A stretch of DNA of 64,000 nucleotides from an uncultured Methanosarcinales archaeon (GTDB lineage: Archaea; Nanobdellota; Nanobdellia; Woesearchaeales; GW2011-AR15): the NCBI GenBank assembly GCA_964512765.1, contig CAZEKF010000006.1, positions 2,747 to 66,746 of the forward strand, written 5' to 3'. Made by a program: the position numbers and the translations under genes. The notes beneath the pieces are model-generated. The model searched no databases. It saw nothing but the letters and a program-made list of their open reading frames with translations, and was not told where the DNA came from. Below, one piece after another: positions 56,183-63,401 of this stretch. Position 1 is the stretch's first letter, and each line of letters starts with the position of its first letter.

Positions 56183-56344
56183 CAACATTTTTATATAAAT
56201 TCATTATTCTTATCCAACTATGCAAGAAAAAAGTGATTTAGGCTGGCACTTGTAAATTAGTTCTTAATAGTTTTATTTATATAAAAAAAGACATATTGTT
56301 TGGTGGTTGGCAATATTAGATTATAATTTTTTTAATTTAACTTA

Positions 56345-56420
56345 TTAGGGGAGTCCTAAAAAAGGTGAAACCTTTTTGGGACACCAAAAATCTCCTTGAG
56401 ATTTTTTCGTGTTCCCCTAA
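56345..56420 (+). ncRNA. Y-shaped structured element (closing stem plus two A/T-flanked hairpins): sRNA or compound terminator
   Basis: TTAGGGGA (56345-52) pairs with TCCCCTAA (56413-20). Hairpin 1 spans 56353-56382 (about 12 bp, loop TGAAA). Hairpin 2 is AAAAATCTC-CTT-GAGATTTTT (56386-56406). Confidence 0.3.
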
Positions 56421-56483
56421 ATCCCCCGATTATTAAAAAAATAGCGATAGCTCTTTTATATTCTGTAAAATATATATCAAAAA

Positions 56484-56495
56484 CTATATAAATAA
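56484..56495 (+). promoter_or_regulatory. TATA-box-like element upstream of the Trp-rich mini-ORF
   Basis: CTATATAAATAA is centred about 29 nt upstream of the ATG at 56518, a spacing expected for a leaderless archaeal transcript. Confidence 0.35.
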
Positions 56496-56517
56496 CTACA
56501 ATATTCCTAACTAAATC

Positions 56518-56619
56518 ATGAAAAATAATATTATGACAAACGCTGCTGTGTACAACAAAGAGTTTAGTTCTTTAATAGATAATATTATTTTGAATGTGAA
56601 TTGGTGTTGGTGGCTTTAG
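56518..56619 (+). CDS. Candidate trp leader peptide (33 aa) ending NVNWCWWL
   Basis: Encodes MKNNIMTNAAVYNKEFSSLIDNIILNVNWCWWL*. Three TGG codons fall in the last five sense codons, directly upstream of tRNA-Trp and trpE. Confidence 0.5.
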   Translation: MKNNIMTNAAVYNKEFSSLIDNIILNVNWCWWL

Positions 56620-56638
56620 AGCCAATTCAGTGTTCTAC

Positions 56639-56712
56639 GGGGTTGTAGTATAACCTGGCTATTATTTCTGGCTCCAGACCGGATGATCCCAGTTCAAATC
56701 TGGGCAACCCCA
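56639..56712 (+). tRNA. tRNA-Trp (anticodon CCA), no intron, CCA end not encoded
   Basis: Acceptor stem GGGGTTG/CAACCCC. Anticodon arm TCTGG-CTCCAGA-CCGGA. T arm CCCAG-TTCAAAT-CTGGG. U8, A14, G18G19 and A21 are in place. The D stem is weak (3 bp). Confidence 0.85.
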
Positions 56713-56718
56713 TTACAA

Positions 56719-56725
56719 TTTTTTT
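56719..56725 (+). terminator. T7 tract between tRNA-Trp and trpE (archaeal oligo-T termination signal candidate)
   Basis: TTTTTTT starts 7 nt after the tRNA 3' end and ends about 20 nt before the GGTGA SD of trpE. Confidence 0.4.
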
Positions 56726-56746
56726 ATTAATTACAAATTATAATAG

Positions 56747-58384
56747 GTGAATAAATTGCAAAAATTAAATGGAAACAAAGAATATTTCAAAAACTTGTTA
56801 AAACAAGTTAAGGTAGGTAGTGTTATACCTTTGTATAAAGAGATCAAGCGAGCAGTAGATCCTGTTAAATTATTTGCAAAACTATCAGATTATGGTAAAA
56901 AACCTAATTCAATATTTTTAGAATCTGCTGCTAACATTGCAAAGTATGGTGTTATGAGTGTTGGTTCTGCTGATCCTTGTCTTAAGATTTCAGGTAAAAA
57001 AACCGAGTTTACAATTACTGCTTTAAACAACTTAGGTGAGAAAATCCTTGATCATATAAAGGATGACTTCAAGTTTTGTGAAAAGATAGTAGTTACTAAA
57101 ACAAAAATATCTGGAAAATTGGTTCCAGAACGTAAAAATGTTCATGAAATGGACAGGTTAAAGTTAAAGACACACATTGATATTTTAAGAATATTAGCTT
57201 TTAAGTTCCAACCAATATTTAAACCGTTTGTTTGTTATGGCGGATTATTTGGAGCATTTTCATATGATTTTATTGATCAGTTTGAAGATCTGCCAGAGTA
57301 TAAAAAAGATATCTTAAACGAAAAAAATTATGAATTTTATTTTGTTGATAATTTGTTTTTTGTCAATCACAAACTAAACAAAACATACTTTGTTGCAAAT
57401 GCTATAAAATTAGATGATGATTATGAATCTTTATTTCAAGGATGTATTAATAAAATAAAAAACTATGAAAAAGTTTTAAACAGTGAACAAAAGTTTCCAT
57501 ATGTAAAAAAAGAATCAGTTAAACATACATTAGATAGTGATGTTTCAAAAAAAGATTTTCTTAAAAACACAGAAAAAATCAAAGAGCATATTAACCAAGG
57601 AGATATTTTCCAGTGTGTTTATTCCCGGACAATCATTTCTAATTATAATTCAGAATGTTTTGATATATATAGATCATTAAAAAGATTAAATCCTTCGCCT
57701 TACATGTTTTACCTTAACTTTGGAAACAGTGTATTACTTGGTGCAAGTCCAGAGATGCATTTAAGAGTGCAAGGAGACGTTGATAAAAAAACAGTTGAAA
57801 TAAGACCAATAGCAGGTACTAAACCAAGAGGTATTGTTAAAGGAAGGATTGACAAAGATTATGATTCTAGATATGAAATTGAAATAAAAACTGATCAAAA
57901 AGAAGTTTCTGAACATACAATGCTTGTAGACCTAGCAAGAAATGATATTGCTAAGATATCAAATCCTGGGTCAAGGATTGTTGATGAAACATACGTGGTT
58001 GAAAAATATTCGCATGTCCAACATTTAGTGTCAAATGTAAAAGGAATCCTTAAAAAAGATCTTGATTGTTTACACGCGTATCTTACAACAATGAACATGG
58101 GCACTTTAACAGGTTCTCCAAAATTAAATGCAATGAAATTCTTAAGAAAATATGAAAAAACTAAAAGAGGTTATTATGGTGGTGCTGTTGGATATATTAC
58201 ACCGAGCAAAGACATGGATACTTGTATTGTAATACGCTCAATGACACTGAAAAATAATAAAGCATATATTAGAGCAGGAGCAGGGATTGTATATGATTCC
58301 ATACCTGAATATGAATATGAAGAAACTTCTAAAAAAGCTATGGCTTGCATTAAAGCAGTAAAGTCTACTGGAGGGTTAAAATGA
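56747..58384 (+). CDS. trpE: Anthranilate synthase component I
   Basis: LESA...; the chorismate-binding C-terminal region GTLTGSPK, RGYYGGAVGY, IRSM, AGAGIVYDS. Start is GTG 56747 or in-frame TTG 56756; GGTGA lies at 56746-50. Confidence 0.9.
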   Translation: MNKLQKLNGNKEYFKNLLKQVKVGSVIPLYKEIKRAVDPVKLFAKLSDYGKKPNSIFLESAANIAKYGVMSVGSADPCLKISGKKTEFTITALNNLGEKILDHIKDDFKFCEKIVVTKTKISGKLVPERKNVHEMDRLKLKTHIDILRILAFKFQPIFKPFVCYGGLFGAFSYDFIDQFEDLPEYKKDILNEKNYEFYFVDNLFFVNHKLNKTYFVANAIKLDDDYESLFQGCINKIKNYEKVLNSEQKFPYVKKESVKHTLDSDVSKKDFLKNTEKIKEHINQGDIFQCVYSRTIISNYNSECFDIYRSLKRLNPSPYMFYLNFGNSVLLGASPEMHLRVQGDVDKKTVEIRPIAGTKPRGIVKGRIDKDYDSRYEIEIKTDQKEVSEHTMLVDLARNDIAKISNPGSRIVDETYVVEKYSHVQHLVSNVKGILKKDLDCLHAYLTTMNMGTLTGSPKLNAMKFLRKYEKTKRGYYGGAVGYITPSKDMDTCIVIRSMTLKNNKAYIRAGAGIVYDSIPEYEYEETSKKAMACIKAVKSTGGLK

Positions 58385-58445
58385 ATGCATACTCACTATC
58401 GTTCATAGCATTCATTTTCCTTAATACTATATTTGAGGTGGGAAA

Positions 58446-59024
58446 ATGAATGTGTTGTTTATTGATAATTTTGATTCATTCACGTTTAACCTTGTAGATG
58501 AGTTTGAAAAAAGAAATTGTAATGTTATTACATATAGGTATAATGTTGGTTTTAAAGTTATTAAGAAAACCATTAAAAAAAATAATTTTAATCTGATAGT
58601 TATCTCGCCAGGAGGTTTTATTCCAAAACAAGTACCGTTATGTAAAGAGATTATACTTAATTATTATAAAAAAGTTCCAATATTTGGCGTATGTTTAGGT
58701 TATGAATGTATTGTTGAAGCTTTTGGCGGTAAGATTGTTAGAGCGCCTGTGCCTATGCACGGTAAAAGCAGCAGGATCTTACATGATAGTAAATCAATAT
58801 TTCAAAACATTCAAAACCCTACATTAGGTGGAAGGTATCATTCTCAAATAGGCACGAAAATACCCGATTGTTTTGAAATTTCTGCAAAAACAGATGACAA
58901 CCTTGTAATGGGTCTGCGTCACAAAAAATACTTTGTTGAAGGAGTGTTGTTTCATCCTGAATCAATATTAACACCGCAAGGTGGAATTCTTATTCAGAAT
59001 TTAATTAACAAGGTGAGAAAATGA
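58446..59024 (+). CDS. trpG: Anthranilate synthase component II (glutamine amidotransferase)
   Basis: IDNFDSFTFNL, GVCLGYE (catalytic Cys), LFHPES. GAGGTG SD. Confidence 0.9.
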   Translation: MNVLFIDNFDSFTFNLVDEFEKRNCNVITYRYNVGFKVIKKTIKKNNFNLIVISPGGFIPKQVPLCKEIILNYYKKVPIFGVCLGYECIVEAFGGKIVRAPVPMHGKSSRILHDSKSIFQNIQNPTLGGRYHSQIGTKIPDCFEISAKTDDNLVMGLRHKKYFVEGVLFHPESILTPQGGILIQNLINKVRK

Positions 59025-60028
59025 TTAAAGCTATTTTAAATAAACTTGTTGAGAAACAGAACCTAACTCAACAAGAAACTGAAACAGTAATGAATGATAT
59101 CATGTCTGGCAATTTAACAGATGCTCAAATAGCTTGCTTTTTAACAGCATTAAGAATGAAAGGTGAAACAATTGAAGAGATTACCGGTTGTGCAAAAGTA
59201 ATGAGAGAAAAAGCTGTAAGGATTACACCTAAAGTTGGCGGTTTGATAGATGTTGTAGGAACTGGAGGTGATAACTCAGGTAGTTTTAACATATCAACAA
59301 CAACTGCGTTTGTGATTGCTGGAGCAGGAATTCCTGTGGCAAAGCACGGTATTCGAAGTGTTTCTAGTAAAAGTGGAAGTGGTGACGTGTTAGAAAAATT
59401 AGGTGTTAACATTGATATAGATCCAGAAAGAGCTAAAGAAGTAATTGAAAAAATTGGTATTTGTTATTTATTTGCACCAATATACCATCCATCATACAAA
59501 TACGTTCTTGGACCAAGAAAAGAAATGGGCATAAGAACTGTTTTTAATGTTCTTGGTTCATTGTGCAACCCTGCTTTTGTTAAGTATCAAGTTGAAGGTG
59601 TTTATGATAAAGAACTTGTTGAACCACTTGCTTATGTTCTAAGTAAACTTGGATTAAAAAGAACAATGGTTGTCCATGGATCTGGTATGGATGAATTTAC
59701 TTTAACAGGCACAAATTATGTTGCTGAGCTAAAAAATAATATTATTAAAACATATGAAATAACGCCTGAAGAGTTTGGGTTTGAAAAGTGCTCATTAGAA
59801 GAGTTAAAAGGTGGTACACCTGAAAAAAATGCAAAAATTACTTTGAACATTTTAAACAGAAGAAAAGGTCCAAAAAGAGATGTTGTTTTGTTAAACGCAG
59901 GTGCTGCGATTTATGTTAGTGGTAAAGCAGATTCTATTGAAGAAGGTATAGAACTAGCTAGCAAGTCAATTGACTCTGGAAAAGCATTAGAGAAGTTAAA
60001 TATGTTAGTTAAGGAGAGTAATAAATGA
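59021..60028 (+). CDS. trpD: Anthranilate phosphoribosyltransferase
   Basis: DVVGTGGDNSGSFNISTT, KHGIRSVSSKSGSGDVLE. Confidence 0.9.
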   Translation: MIKAILNKLVEKQNLTQQETETVMNDIMSGNLTDAQIACFLTALRMKGETIEEITGCAKVMREKAVRITPKVGGLIDVVGTGGDNSGSFNISTTTAFVIAGAGIPVAKHGIRSVSSKSGSGDVLEKLGVNIDIDPERAKEVIEKIGICYLFAPIYHPSYKYVLGPRKEMGIRTVFNVLGSLCNPAFVKYQVEGVYDKELVEPLAYVLSKLGLKRTMVVHGSGMDEFTLTGTNYVAELKNNIIKTYEITPEEFGFEKCSLEELKGGTPEKNAKITLNILNRRKGPKRDVVLLNAGAAIYVSGKADSIEEGIELASKSIDSGKALEKLNMLVKESNK

Positions 60029-60816
60029 AAACTACAAACACCATATTAGATAAAATTGTAGAGTATAATATAATAGAATTAGAATTAAGAAAAAAAGAAT
60101 TGCCTTTATCAGAGATCAAAAAACAACTTGGTAAGAAAAAAATTAAAAAAAGAGATTTCAAGAATGCTCTCAAAAAAAAGAATAAAATATCTTTAATTGC
60201 AGAAATTAAAAAAGCATCTCCTTCTCTTGGTGTGATAAAAGATAACATAGATCATGTAGAACTGGCTAAGGAGTATGAGAAAGCAGGTGCATCTGCAATA
60301 TCTGTATTAACTGATAAGAAATTCTTTCAAGGAGAATTAAGTTATATTCAAGACATAAAAGATGCAACTAAATTACCAATATTAAGAAAAGACTTTATTT
60401 TTGACGAATATCAAGTTTATGAATCAAAATTATGTGGAGCTGATGCTATTTTACTAATAACAAGTATATTAACAAAACAAGATTTAATGCATTTACTTAA
60501 GGTAGCTAAAAAACTTAATTTAGATTGTTTAGTTGAAACGCATTCTTACTTAGAATTAGAAACTGCTCTTGAATGCAACGCAGAAATTATTGGTATTAAC
60601 AACCGTGACTTAAAAACATTTGAAGTTAATATTAATAATTTTGTGAATTTAGCAAGATTTGTTCCTAAAGAAAAAATTCTTGTATGCGAGTCCGGGATTT
60701 TTACAAGATCTGATGTAATGAAAGTTAAAACTGCAGGGGCAGATGTAATTTTAGTTGGGACCTGTATCATGACATCTAATAATATTCAAAAAAAGATAAT
60801 GGAGTTGATTGTATGA
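60025..60816 (+). CDS. trpC: Indole-3-glycerol phosphate synthase
   Basis: LIAEIKKASPS.G, ISVLTD..FF.G, PILRKDFI, INNRDL. Confidence 0.9.
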   Translation: MKTTNTILDKIVEYNIIELELRKKELPLSEIKKQLGKKKIKKRDFKNALKKKNKISLIAEIKKASPSLGVIKDNIDHVELAKEYEKAGASAISVLTDKKFFQGELSYIQDIKDATKLPILRKDFIFDEYQVYESKLCGADAILLITSILTKQDLMHLLKVAKKLNLDCLVETHSYLELETALECNAEIIGINNRDLKTFEVNINNFVNLARFVPKEKILVCESGIFTRSDVMKVKTAGADVILVGTCIMTSNNIQKKIMELIV

Positions 60817-61442
60817 CTAAAATTAAGATTTGTGGAATTACAAATTATAAAGATGCTGATTATTGTGCAAAATTAGGTGTAGATTATCTTGGGTTTATTT
60901 TTTATAATAAAAGTCCACGGTGTGGGGAAGTAGAACTTATAAAAAAAATTACTGATAAACTAATAAAAACATATTTGAACATGGCACCAAGGTTAGTCGG
61001 TGTTTTTGTTAATGAAAAAATTGAGAACATTGTTGAGATTGTTAAAAAGTGTAAACTTGACTTAGTTCAGTTACATGGTGATGAAACTCCTGAATATATT
61101 AATGAATTAAAATCAAAATTAAATACTAATGTTCAAATCATAAATTCAATAAGAGTAAAAGATTCTGATTCATTATTAAATTTAAATAAGTATAATGCAG
61201 ATTTTTTTCATTTTGACACTTTTTCAAAAGATGTATACGGTGGAACAGGAAAACAGTTTGATCATTCATTGCTAAAAAACATTCCGAAACCATATTTTAT
61301 TGCCGGTGGATTAAATAATGAAAACATAGATACTGCTTTAGCATTAAAACCATACGCATTAGACTTTAATTCTGGTATTGAAATTATTCCTGGTAACAAA
61401 GATCATAATAAAATTAAACAAGTTGTAGAGAGGTTAAGATGA
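60813..61442 (+). CDS. trpF: Phosphoribosylanthranilate isomerase
   Basis: KICGIT, YLGFIF...SPR, VQLHGDE, GGTGK.FD. Confidence 0.85.
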
Positions 61443-62629
61443 AACTAAACACTAAATTTGGTAAATATGGTGGAACATACATTCCTGAACTATTAATGCC
61501 TGCACTTGAAGAACTAGAGGAAGCTTACATCAAATACAAAGATGATGCAATGTTTAACAATGATTTTAAACATTTGTTAAAAACATACGCTGGACGACCT
61601 ACTAGGTTGTACTTTGCACGAAATCTCTCTAAAAAATTAGGTTGTAAAATATATTTTAAAAGAGAAGACATGCTGCACGGCGGTGCTCATAAAACTAACA
61701 ACGGTCTTGGCCAAGGGTTGTTAGCAAAGTACATGGGTAAAACAAGGATTATTGCTGAAACAGGCGCAGGCCAGCACGGGTTTGCAGCAGCAATGATTGG
61801 CGCGTTTCTTAAAATACCTACTGAAGTTTACATGGGCACAAAAGATATTGAAAGGCAAAGAATGAACGTGCATAGAATGAGATTGTGCGGTGCTAAAATA
61901 ATTCCTGTTAAACTAGGTTCTTGTACATTAAAAGACGCTATTAGTGAGTGTCTTAGAGATTGGGTTACAAATATTGAAAATACTTATTATTTACTTGGAA
62001 CTGTAGCTGGACCACATCCATATCCTTCATTGGTCAGAGATTTCCAAAAAGTAATTGGTGAAGAAGTTAAATCGCAAATAATGGAAAAAGAAGGGAAGTT
62101 ACCTGATTACATTATTGCGTGTGTTGGCGGTGGTAGTAATGCAATGGGTATTTTTAATGACTTCATAGATGATAAAGAAGTTAAATTAATTGGAGTGGAA
62201 CCTGCTGGAAAAGGTCTTGACACTAAACATCACGGTGCTTCAATTGTTAAAGGACGTCCTGGTATATTTGACGGTTCATTATCCTATTTGCTACAAGATG
62301 AGAATGGCCAAATTAATGAATCATTCAGCATTTCAGCTGGTTTGGATTATCCTGGTGTTGGTGCACAATTATCACATTTAAATGATTCTGGTAGAGTTGA
62401 GTTTACTGCTGCAACAGATGATGAAACACTTCAAGCATTCAAACTATTATCTGAAACAGAAGGAATAATTCCTGCACTAGAATCTGCGCATGCTGTTGCT
62501 CATGCTATTAAACTATCAAAAAACTTGAAAAGAGATGACATTGTTGTTATTAACCTTTCGGGCAGAGGTGATAAAGACGTGTTTCATGCAAGTGAAGCAT
62601 TGGAAAAAGGTGATAATAATGAAAATTAA
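61439..62629 (+). CDS. trpB: Tryptophan synthase beta chain
   Basis: [22 protein letters not shown] (PLP Lys), [16 protein letters not shown]. Confidence 0.95.
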
Positions 62630-63401
62630 CAAAAACGCGTTCATGGCGCATGTATACTACGGGGATCCTAATGAAGTGTTTTCAGATGAATTAATCAAAA
62701 TACTTATTGAAAGTGGTATTGATATTCTAGAATTTGGCATTCCTTTTTCTGATCCAACTGCAGACGGATCAACTTTCATTAAAGCTTGTGAAAGATCACT
62801 AAAAAAGGGTATGACTCCTAGGAAATGCATTGAAGGTATTAAAAAAATTAGAAAAAAAGGTTATATGTTACCAATTGTAGTTACTACATATTTCAATATT
62901 GTGTATCAATATGGAATCGAAAAGTTCATTAAAGACATTAAAGACGCTGGTGCTAATGGTTTAATAATACCTGAATTAGTAATTGAAGAGTCTGATGAAG
63001 TCCAGAAATATGGAGATAAATATGATATTAATATCATTTACTTAATAGGTCCATACTCCTCTGAAGAAAGAATTAAAAAGATATGTGAGAAAGCAACAGA
63101 GTTCTTGTATTTATGTGCAGTAACTGGCGTAACTGGAGCCAGAGAAAATGTAAAAAACTCAACATTTGAACTTATTAAAAGAGTTAGAAAACATACTGAT
63201 TTACCCTTGTTTATTGGTTTTGGCATTTCTAAACCTGAACATGTTAAGTTATTAATAAAAAATGGTGCTGACGGAGTCATAATTGGAAGCGCAATAGGAA
63301 AGATTTATGAAAGATATATTGTTAATAATAAAATAACTAATAAAGAACAATGTCTTAATGAAGTAGCTGGGTATGTTAAAGGCATTAAAAATTGTTGTTA
63401 A
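62619..63401 (+). CDS. trpA: Tryptophan synthase alpha chain
   Basis: [26 protein letters not shown] placed the start at the ATG at 62619 (GGTGA SD, 11-nt overlap with trpB). Confidence 0.9.

Follow-up and report, generated by a model that had tools for sequence, protein, structure and literature searches.

The window analyzed here, a stretch of 64,000 nucleotides with a G+C content of ~31%, carries a complete trpEGDCFBA operon. The DNA directly in front of trpE holds a short open reading frame (ORF2) ending in a cluster of Trp codons, a tRNA-Trp gene, and a run of seven T residues (T7). A first annotation of the letters (the sequence-only reading) had proposed that this mini-ORF and/or the tRNA could control the operon, and the features it listed (mini-ORF, TATA-like box, tRNA-Trp, T7, GGTGA, and trp operon) were all recovered where it had placed them (Table 1). 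The best homologues of TrpE are labeled Woesearchaeota or Nanoarchaeota (DPANN archaea), and the source of the window is a Woesearchaeota-like DPANN archaeon. For comparison, ~90 trpE loci (designated by L numbers) were gathered through alignments of the TrpE N terminus and contig look-ups; alignments of the N terminus only were adopted because a full-length query was swamped by bacteria and a single-protein contig search returned unrelated Mucilaginibacter only. A metagenome scan yielded 6 loci, half of them bacterial, and contigs from other samples with an identical TrpE also had an identical leader, hence no variation to analyze. The TrpE homologues carry PF04715 and PF00425, and the neighboring genes of relatives were likewise assigned to Pfam families. 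Two clades recur below: the Iain-type, mostly labeled Iainarchaeum, and the Woese-type, labeled Woesearchaeota and without the tRNA. Comparison with ~75 related trpE loci supports the view that the mini-ORF, with its cluster of Trp codons, is conserved and functional in the trp leaders of related DPANN archaea.

Table 1. Features of the trp leader and operon in the window, with the evidence for each
Feature	Coordinates	Strand	Basis
Upstream promoter P1, TATA-like TTTATATA, 30 nt before the ORF1 ATG	56190..56197	+	Sequence; also in L086
ORF1, frame 0, predicted leaderless, MQEKSDLGWHL-stop, single invariant Trp codon at 56244-56246	56220..56255	+	Family motif
+1 frame from the GGC inside TGGC, GTCKLVLNSFIYIKKDILFGGWQY-stop, tail ..FGGWQY-stop	56245..56319	+	No-indel alignment with L086
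First T7 tract, candidate oligo-T termination signal	56327..56333	+	7 nt past +1-tail stop; T6 equivalent in L086
Window-specific insertion of ~70-95 nt, two hairpins	56337..56430	+	Absent from L086 (alignment)
Promoter block P3, nearly identical in L086, including TATA-like CTATATAAATAA at 56484-56495	56441..56497	+	Alignment with L086
ORF2, predicted leaderless 33-codon ORF, MKNNIMTNAAVYNKEFSSLIDNIILNVNWCWWL-stop, ending NWCWWL-stop	56518..56619	+	Read from sequence
Stop-codon hairpin TGGCT-TTAG-AGCCA, UAG in tetraloop	56611..56624	+	Folding, covariation
tRNA-Trp(CCA), no intron, no encoded CCA end	56639..56712	+	ARAGORN; Rfam tRNA, 52.9 bits
Second T7 tract, expected oligo-T stop of the tRNA and candidate regulated read-through point	56719..56725	+	6 nt past tRNA
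trpE ribosome-binding site GGTGA (56746-50), likely start TTG (56756), alternative start GTG (56747)	56746..56758	+	N-terminal homologue comparison
trpE-G-D-C-F-B-A operon	56756..63401	+	ORFs; complete operon

ORF2 places three in-frame TGG codons (56602-04, 56608-10, and 56611-13) among its last five sense codons. A TATA-like sequence, TATATAAA, lies at 56485-92, ~29 nt upstream of its ATG. Measured from the first base of the box, the P3 TATA element begins 33 nt ahead of the ATG in both the window and its closest relative, and a TATA-like box begins 29 to 31 nt ahead of the ATG in 10 further leaders, for a total of 12/13 at 29 to 33 nt. Taking as leaderless a transcript whose TATA box is centered ~26 to 27 nt upstream of a start site coinciding with the AUG, this geometry fits leaderless ORF2-type transcripts and bears out the leaderless transcript previously proposed for the window. 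The accompanying claim that TGG is a rare triplet was wrong: it makes up 1.1% of triplets (rank 29/64), and Trp accounts for 0.81% of residues in long ORFs. A scan of the two strands of the window for mini-ORFs (8 to 45 codons, a TATA-like box at -36 to -22, and at least 3 identical residues among the last 8) returned ORF2 alone, and its arrangement is far beyond chance.

The closest relative (L086; TrpE 85% identical) has the same leader architecture. Its promoter block is nearly identical to that of the window, the ATG is at the same position, and the ORF is open, encoding MKTMITSKTRKIECSNNSFISNWFSWQ-stop, with Trp codons kept near the stop and a small hairpin that holds the stop codon in its loop. 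The tRNA-Trp begins 21 nt past the ORF stop (19 nt in the window), the changes in its stems relative to the window are compensatory, and downstream of it T-runs (T4+T4) are followed by the same Shine-Dalgarno sequence (SD) and start. The interior of ORF2 is unalignable between the two loci, and the two indels measure 6 and 12 nt. As far as sequence comparison can tell, a frame and Trp tail that are kept while the peptide diverges are the signature of a regulatory ORF.

The sequence-only reading had proposed looking in relatives for W-rich mini-ORFs and linked tRNA-Trp genes, and both were found: a Trp-tailed leader ORF occurs in L086 and across the wider DPANN family, and a linked tRNA-Trp occurs in 14 loci belonging to two TrpE clades. 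Distant relatives without the tRNA have leaderless ORFs whose last residues before the stop are ..SWR, ..NWQL, ..LWTWC, ..SWY, ..SWC, ..ISWN, ..LYWN, or ..WFIWD, and these ORFs end 20 to 108 nt upstream of an SD-led trpE. Across 68 DPANN trpE upstream regions, Trp was present in the last 5 codons of 45 of the 162 ORFs that begin with ATG, compared to 10.1 ± 3.1 in dinucleotide shuffles (maximum of 21 among 300; ~4.5-fold enrichment) and to 6/127 on the opposite strand. Counted by region, 40/68 held a Trp-tailed ATG-ORF (9.5 ± 2.8 when shuffled). Runs of at least 5 T residues were found within 35 nt past 8/18 Trp-tail stops, compared to 18% of 150 control ORFs.

The window tRNA-Trp has the marks of a functional gene: it forms a cloverleaf with a CCA anticodon, its stems differ between orthologues by compensatory changes, and an oligo-T lies downstream. 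A same-strand tRNA-Trp lies immediately 5' of trpE in the 14 loci just mentioned (3 with introns); the only other tRNA among ~80 trpE loci was one tRNA-Glu. In the TrpE tree, the 14 loci form two separate groups, the Iain-type clade and the window with L086, the latter nested among relatives that have the leader ORF only. The two clades indicate that linkage between tRNA-Trp and trpE arose more than once or was often lost, and the tRNA is optional in the family, since many relatives have a Trp-tailed ORF without it. Where both are present, 6 to 29 nt separate the Trp-tail stop from the tRNA 5' end in 10/11 loci (58 nt in L164). Between the tRNA and trpE, the gap amounts to 10 nt in L147, 26 nt in L161, 32 nt in L116, and 34 to 35 nt in the window and L086. 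A separate trpE promoter does not fit into the 10 nt of L147, and, judging from such spacings, the tRNA and trpE must be cotranscribed in several relatives. In the window, where little room for an independent trpE promoter had been noted, the T7/ATTAATTA stretch, if taken as a TATA box, would put the transcription start at or past the SD. No TATA-like box was present 20 to 40 nt upstream of the window tRNA, which leaves the promoter before the mini-ORF as its only plausible one, so that mini-ORF RNA would have to be made.

Other structures accompany the tRNA in some relatives. L104, L135, L138, L157, L164, L156, L168, and L162 have perfect hairpins after the tRNA, T rich in the 5' arm and A rich in the 3' arm (e.g., CTTTTCTTTT-AGA-AAAAGAAAAG); in Iain-type relatives, such hairpins occupy the position that the second T7 tract has in the window. 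Similar T-rich/A-rich hairpins are held in the long tRNA-Trp introns of L156 and L168, and L162 has GTTGCCCAAAGAAAAAGAAAAACTGCGG repeats between the tRNA and trpE.

The stop codon of ORF2 is enclosed in a small hairpin that can be extended by pairing GAATTGG (56598-604) with CCAATTC (56622-628). These two pairings had been described as mutually exclusive hairpins; they are indeed alternatives sharing the CCA, but the minimum-energy fold merges both, and only TGGCT/AGCCA is conserved. That fold, computed for 56515-56770, consists of a hairpin at 56592-56632 (~-11 kcal/mol), the tRNA cloverleaf, and a weak AU/GU hairpin pairing the T7 tract with the trpE SD and start. In most tRNA-bearing leaders, a GC helix of 4 to 5 bp closes a tetraloop that contains the stop codon (GUAG, GUAA, or UUAG); most tRNA-less leaders are without the stop-codon hairpin. 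Among 7 distinct tRNA-type leaders, 85.7% of cells were paired (60.2% shuffled), compensatory changes occurred in 5/5 pairs, and the covariation score of 0.72 (0.22 shuffled) was reached by 0/500 shuffles. The signal collapsed in controls whose partner columns were slid by 1 to 3 positions.

The structure nevertheless does not behave as a bacterial attenuator would. Folding of alternative structures, which had been proposed as a check on the sequence-only reading, gave no switch between terminator and antiterminator hairpins. When a ribosome footprint was forced on each Trp codon in constrained minimum-energy folds, only 56592-56632 refolded, and the tRNA and T7 region were unaltered. Because the masked ribosome alters only the local hairpin, a bacterial-type terminator/antiterminator switch is not supported, and the classical attenuator with alternative hairpins was rejected on this ground. 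No GC hairpin abuts T7 (the tRNA intervenes, and T7 lies 6 nt past the acceptor stem), and a terminator scan of the + strand found none. Other RNA-based candidates were also set aside: sequestration of the SD by the Trp-codon region, since both are G rich and not complementary; a UGG-rich leader mimicking the tRNA acceptor strand, which fits the window but not the Iain-type loci; a TRAP-like protein on UGG repeats, which are too few and for whose in-frame location close to the stop coding is the better explanation; a box C/D guide RNA directed at tRNA-Trp, as inspection revealed neither suitably arranged C/D boxes nor complementarity to the anticodon arm; and a T-box or other known riboswitch, for which there was no Rfam match. 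In the window and 12 related loci, tRNA was the sole Rfam family matched, with no Trp leader and no T-box (RF00230).

The sequence-only account of the leader did not include a further conserved Trp module, which lies 300 nt upstream, at 56220-56333. Its first part, ORF1, belongs to a family with the pattern M-x(2-5)-D-x-x-W-x(1-7)-stop and the nucleotide motif GAT-N6-TGG-C, present upstream of trpE in ~37 loci, always with the ATG in frame and with the frame-0 stop 1 to 7 codons past the single Trp codon (e.g., MKSDCPWR, MQGDSLWLQ, and MRLPELGDYRWQHK, each followed by a stop). The motif is unique within the window. Its second part is the +1 frame that runs on from the Trp codon and is open at every locus of this family. 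In the window, L086, and L092, this frame is open for 24 to 32 codons and shares the tail ..FG(G/C)W(Q)-stop; in the window, a TAG just upstream of the TGG blocks the GTG start used in relatives, and an in-frame TTG is found at 56296. In Woese-type loci, the +1 frame is open for 53 to 73 codons and ends between -20 and +67 nt from the trpE start (shuffle P ≤ 0.01 in each of 12 loci; the other frame is open for 1 to 17 codons). In Iain-type loci, it is open for 29 to 40 codons and ends in W-x-W-x-W right before the tRNA, and in L159 and L173, as in L121, L125, and L130, it coincides with the frame of TrpE. Upstream of the Trp tail, the +1 frame of six Iain-type loci and of L187 contains no ATG, GTG, or TTG.

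The long +1 ORFs contain 0 to 4 stops in the +1 frame compared to 3 to 14 in the other two, and in-frame TGG is depleted (1, compared to 8 and 10 in the other frames). Substitutions at codon positions 1/2/3 number 300/291/275; given no excess of third-position changes, a conserved small protein was rejected. By these comparisons, the +1 frame is kept open while its peptide is not conserved. The codon before the UGG is CUU in ~20 loci, giving CUU_UGG_C, one base from the Ty1 site CUU_AGG_C. CUU, UUU, or CCC precedes the UGG in about two-thirds of loci and CCG, CGG, CGC, or GGC in the rest, with GGC in the window.

Several features of the ORF1 region are recorded as separate observations. In L101, L106, L111, L115, L117, L123, L124, L129, L137, L140, and L150, the distance from the ORF1 motif to trpE is rigid, ~212 to 215 nt, and three conserved blocks are found in these 11 loci: GAGTTTTATATAG; 1 to 2 copies of (A/G)CCTTATT; and AAAAA(C/G)TTTATATAA, ~45 nt before trpE. 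Their SD is GGGGGT, and the blocks look like a canonical promoter and possible operator repeats inside the open +1 ORF. For the Iain-type ORF1 region, RNAalifold on a MAFFT alignment gave a weak 5-bp helix only (TGGCT with TAGCC); an outer helix, GCAAGGC/GCCTTGC with covarying variants, was seen by eye only. At the Trp tails of the window clade (window 56308-56313; L086, L112, L186, and L187), Gln is usually next, often as the rare CAG (TTGGCAG), and tRNA-less relatives have a conserved TTCTCATT block past the tail; nucleotide conservation after the tail Trp exceeds what a Trp codon alone would need.

The anatomy of the leader, its conservation, and the need for cotranscription in relatives can be read from the compared loci directly; from them, we infer that the ORF is translated, in which direction it acts, and what the molecular output step is. 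On balance, we lean toward the idea that ORF2 is a real, ribosome-read leader ORF that reports the supply of Trp-tRNA(Trp), within a composite leader conserved in DPANN archaea. In the family, the unit would be a translated ORF with Trp 1 to 5 codons from its stop and, after it, either a T-rich stretch and the trpE SD or a stop hairpin followed by tRNA-Trp and then by a T tract or T/A hairpin. In archaea, RNA polymerase is stopped by oligo-T or by aCPSF1/FttA. In the window, P3 would fire a leaderless transcript of ORF2, tRNA-Trp, and, once the polymerase clears T7, trpEGDCFBA. With charged tRNA-Trp ample, the ribosome would read the three UGGs, terminate at the UAG in the hairpin loop, and depart, leaving the AU-rich leader bare; the transcript would then be ended or cut at oligo-T and tRNA-processing sites, yielding mostly tRNA-Trp. 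With charged tRNA-Trp scarce, the ribosome would park on the UGGs, 26 to 37 nt upstream of the tRNA, and melt the stop hairpin. The parked ribosome and the folded tRNA would leave little free RNA for oligo-T termination, aCPSF1/FttA, RNase P, or RNase Z, and with less termination or cleavage, more transcripts would reach or survive into trpE. The upstream module (ORF1, the +1 Trp tail, and T7 at 56327-33) would follow the same logic and probably act first.

A number of observations weigh against this interpretation. AT-rich DNA easily yields TATA-like boxes and T-runs, and the enrichment of T-runs past Trp tails is modest. The loci are phylogenetically related, so that counts overstate the number of independent events, and among the ORFs counted, that of L098, which overlaps the TATA box, is probably spurious. 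The leader is patchy: the close relatives L087 and L176 have another gene directly before trpE and no leader. Several clades have, instead or in addition, a divergent gene of 207 to 210 aa and operator-like repeats, suggesting protein control. No alternative structure links the Trp codons to the tRNA/T7 region, which leaves the output step speculative. Finally, tRNA-Trp is probably essential and constitutive, which limits the strength of any attenuation upstream of it; since this tRNA has to be produced, regulation in the window more likely acts past the tRNA, either at T7 (56719-25) or in processing, than before it.

Part of the evidence can be read in other ways. One alternative, compatible with the leader-ORF interpretation, makes ORF1 the main Trp sensor and ORF2 a second stage: with ample Trp-tRNA, the UGG would be read and the ribosome would stop a few codons on, and under scarcity it would shift +1 at N-UGG-C and read GGC, following the +1 frame to the Trp tail by the T tract or tRNA-Trp, to the trpE start (translational coupling), or into TrpE itself. 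Such a shift would account for the 53 to 73 open codons ending near the trpE start in 12 Woese-type loci, for a frame that stays free of stops and poor in TGG while its peptide diverges, for the five loci in which it is the TrpE frame, and for the seven loci without a +1 start codon before the Trp tail, as well as for the window, where the TAG before the TGG closes the +1 frame; the likeness of CUU_UGG_C in ~20 loci to the Ty1 site points the same way. The Woese-type loci, however, have a conserved GTG four codons upstream that could start the +1 ORF directly, together with a canonical-looking trpE promoter and SD inside that ORF. The frame-0 D..W is partly an automatic by-product of V-I-x-F-G in the +1 frame, and in about a third of loci, the window (GGC) included, the codon before the UGG cannot re-pair in +1. 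There is, in our view, a substantial chance that a new type of switch, one relying on frameshifts at a starved codon, is concealed in the upstream module; that ORF1 is the main sensor is possible but doubtful, and we regard as equally tentative the broader proposal, drawn from the compared loci, that DPANN archaea sense Trp starvation by programmed +1 frameshifting at a starved UGG, with a tRNA gene built into some leaders.

A passive juxtaposition would need no sensor at all. The ORF2 region would be the 5' leader of pre-tRNA-Trp, T7 an ordinary tRNA terminator, and expression of the trp operon would depend on weak read-through or on a separate AT-rich promoter controlled by a protein regulator, with the Trp codons reflecting RNA structure (a UGG-rich 5' arm pairing with GCCA). 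Oligo-T past a tRNA gene is a normal archaeal terminator, TTTTTTTATTAATTA at 56719-56733 is readable as a TATA box, the last Trp codon does lie in a conserved hairpin arm, and several related clades appear to use the divergent regulator gene with operator-like repeats. Described archaeal regulation acts at promoter recruitment, called in a 2021 paper the only known target of regulation in archaea (PMC8448881). We consider this explanation unlikely, in that Trp-tailed leaderless ORFs in relatives without tRNA or hairpin, in-frame TGG 1 to 5 codons before the stop, indels in multiples of three, and the 4.5-fold enrichment would all be left unexplained; the start site set by a TATA box at 56719-33 and the 10-nt spacer of L147 also speak against it. 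A further possibility, purely inferential, is that the leader ORF acts through processing, chiefly on tRNA-Trp or on the joint supply of charged tRNA-Trp. With a ribosome parked ~25 to 35 nt upstream, RNase P would be hindered and RNase Z cleavage delayed in turn, so that trp mRNA would stay attached to the tRNA, protected by tRNA and ribosome, rather than being cut off and degraded 5' to 3'. The mostly constrained distance from Trp-tail stop to tRNA, the covarying stop hairpin in most tRNA-bearing and its absence from most tRNA-less leaders, and the very short spacers between tRNA and trpE are consistent with such a role, as is the placement of the sensor, the tRNA, and the Trp enzymes, thus both determinants of charged tRNA-Trp, in one transcription unit. 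Since the Trp-tail module works without the tRNA in many relatives, however, the tRNA is not essential to the sensor, and we rate control through processing as quite improbable.

Leader-peptide control of amino acid operons is a textbook bacterial mechanism; to our knowledge, it is not established in Archaea. Like bacterial trp attenuators (E. coli trpL and WWW leaders), the window has a short Trp-clustered ORF before trpE on the same strand, with a T-rich stop signal after it, and the bacterial WWW-leader examples belong to the same TrpE clade as the window family. It differs in being archaeal and leaderless, in having a tRNA gene between leader and operon, and in being without 1:2, 2:3, and 3:4 alternative hairpins and without a GC hairpin abutting the T tract. 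The element thus resembles a leader-peptide attenuator but fails its two defining structural tests: on the comparative evidence, the leader-peptide reading is well supported, and the hairpin-switch mechanism is not. The logic that we propose for the window is that of the E. coli tna operon, where a ribosome held at the end of the leader ORF shields the stop-adjacent RNA from a termination factor. TnaC senses free Trp via its nascent peptide, its stalling turns on catabolism, and the factor is Rho, whereas in the window, stalling would come from lack of Trp-tRNA, would turn on synthesis, and the factor would be aCPSF1/FttA. T-box riboswitches (Firmicutes, uncharged tRNA) likewise tie tRNA-Trp status to trp expression via leader RNA, but the window has no specifier loop, T-box motif, or RF00230 match, its tRNA is encoded in cis, and its codons lie in an ORF.

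For the upstream module, the nearest parallels are prfB (CUU_UGA_C) and yeast Ty1/ABP140 (CUU_AGG_C): ~20 ORF1 relatives have the similar CUU_UGG_C near a frame-0 stop, with a long +1 frame from GGC, and, like the prfB shift, this one would let the pathway that overcomes the slow codon regulate itself. Unlike in prfB and Ty1, the slow codon of ORF1 would be a sense codon starved for Trp-tRNA, and GGC_UGG_C of the window cannot re-pair. We know of no +1 frameshift switch of this kind in archaea or for amino acid biosynthesis. The Ty1 site CUU_AGG_C supports ~40% +1 shifting at a slowly decoded codon (PMC5009743). Described control of archaeal trp operons is by protein regulators such as TrpY (Methanothermobacter); as in protein-regulated systems, some relatives have a divergent gene and operator-like repeats in the same intergenic region, whereas the window has no divergent regulator. 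Neither a trp leader peptide in archaea nor linkage of tRNA-Trp to trpE turned up in our full-text literature searches.

The window and ~40 related loci offer a concrete, testable case in which archaeal ribosomes would read the metabolic state from a leaderless transcript. Its anatomy is new: the Trp codons come right before a stop codon that sits in a hairpin loop, the leader includes the gene of the cognate tRNA, and oligo-T signals replace hairpin terminators. It gives an entry point to the regulatory use of transcription-translation coupling and aCPSF1/FttA-type termination in archaea and to the questions of whether tRNA processing can gate mRNA expression and whether starved-codon frameshifting was recruited as a sensor. 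If true, the frameshift reading would amount to an amino acid-responsive, prfB-like recoding switch standing in for bacterial attenuation. The loci also bear on how such designs cross domains, as the operon family was apparently exchanged between DPANN archaea and bacteria with the leader-peptide principle. Bacterial TrpEs (Marinimicrobia and Planctomycetes) are nested in the DPANN TrpE radiation, and their loci (L095, L128, L172, L174, L175, and L179-L181) have WWW leader peptides and hairpin-T terminators; this nesting suggests that the trp operon family moved between domains, in whichever direction, with the leader-peptide principle retained.

Concerning the operon itself, the sequence-only reading had left the trpE start at either GTG or TTG. 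TTG is the likelier because it aligns with the M-Q-K start of TrpE homologues and has GGTGA 5 nt upstream, as in L087; GTG remains as the alternative only. The gene preceding the leader is on the same strand and encodes an RNA-binding protein (PF01877), and no divergent regulator gene is present at the window trp locus. Between the two leader modules, the window-specific insertion holds the hairpins GTCCTAAAAAAGG..CCTTTTTGGGAC and, terminator-like, AAAAATCTC-CTT-GAGATTTTTT. It is single copy within the window, has no Rfam match, and may represent a small mobile element or serve to insulate the two modules from each other. In the 73%-identical relative L087 (positions 1-206), trpE and the end of a DAHP-synthase-like gene overlap, and neither leader nor tRNA is present, indicating that the leader was lost or replaced inside the window's own clade.

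The divergent gene of 207 to 210 aa, without a Pfam match, stands opposite trpE in L088/L090, L091/L184, L094/L178, L177, L185, L186, L098, L107, and L134; for the 207-aa gene of L088, a search against Pfam matched no family. In L094/L178, L177, L098, L107, and L134, the intergenic region contains TTATAAATTTAAC...ATGTCACAAA just before the trpE-side TATA box. The gene and motif are a candidate protein regulator and operator, going by their arrangement, which suggests that protein control coexists with leaders in this trpE family. At one further locus, L089 (positions 1-129), trpE is preceded by the 3' end of a GC-rich RNA that had no Rfam match at the gathering threshold; the RNA is apparently structured and ends in ...CAGCATCCCCA, followed by T8.

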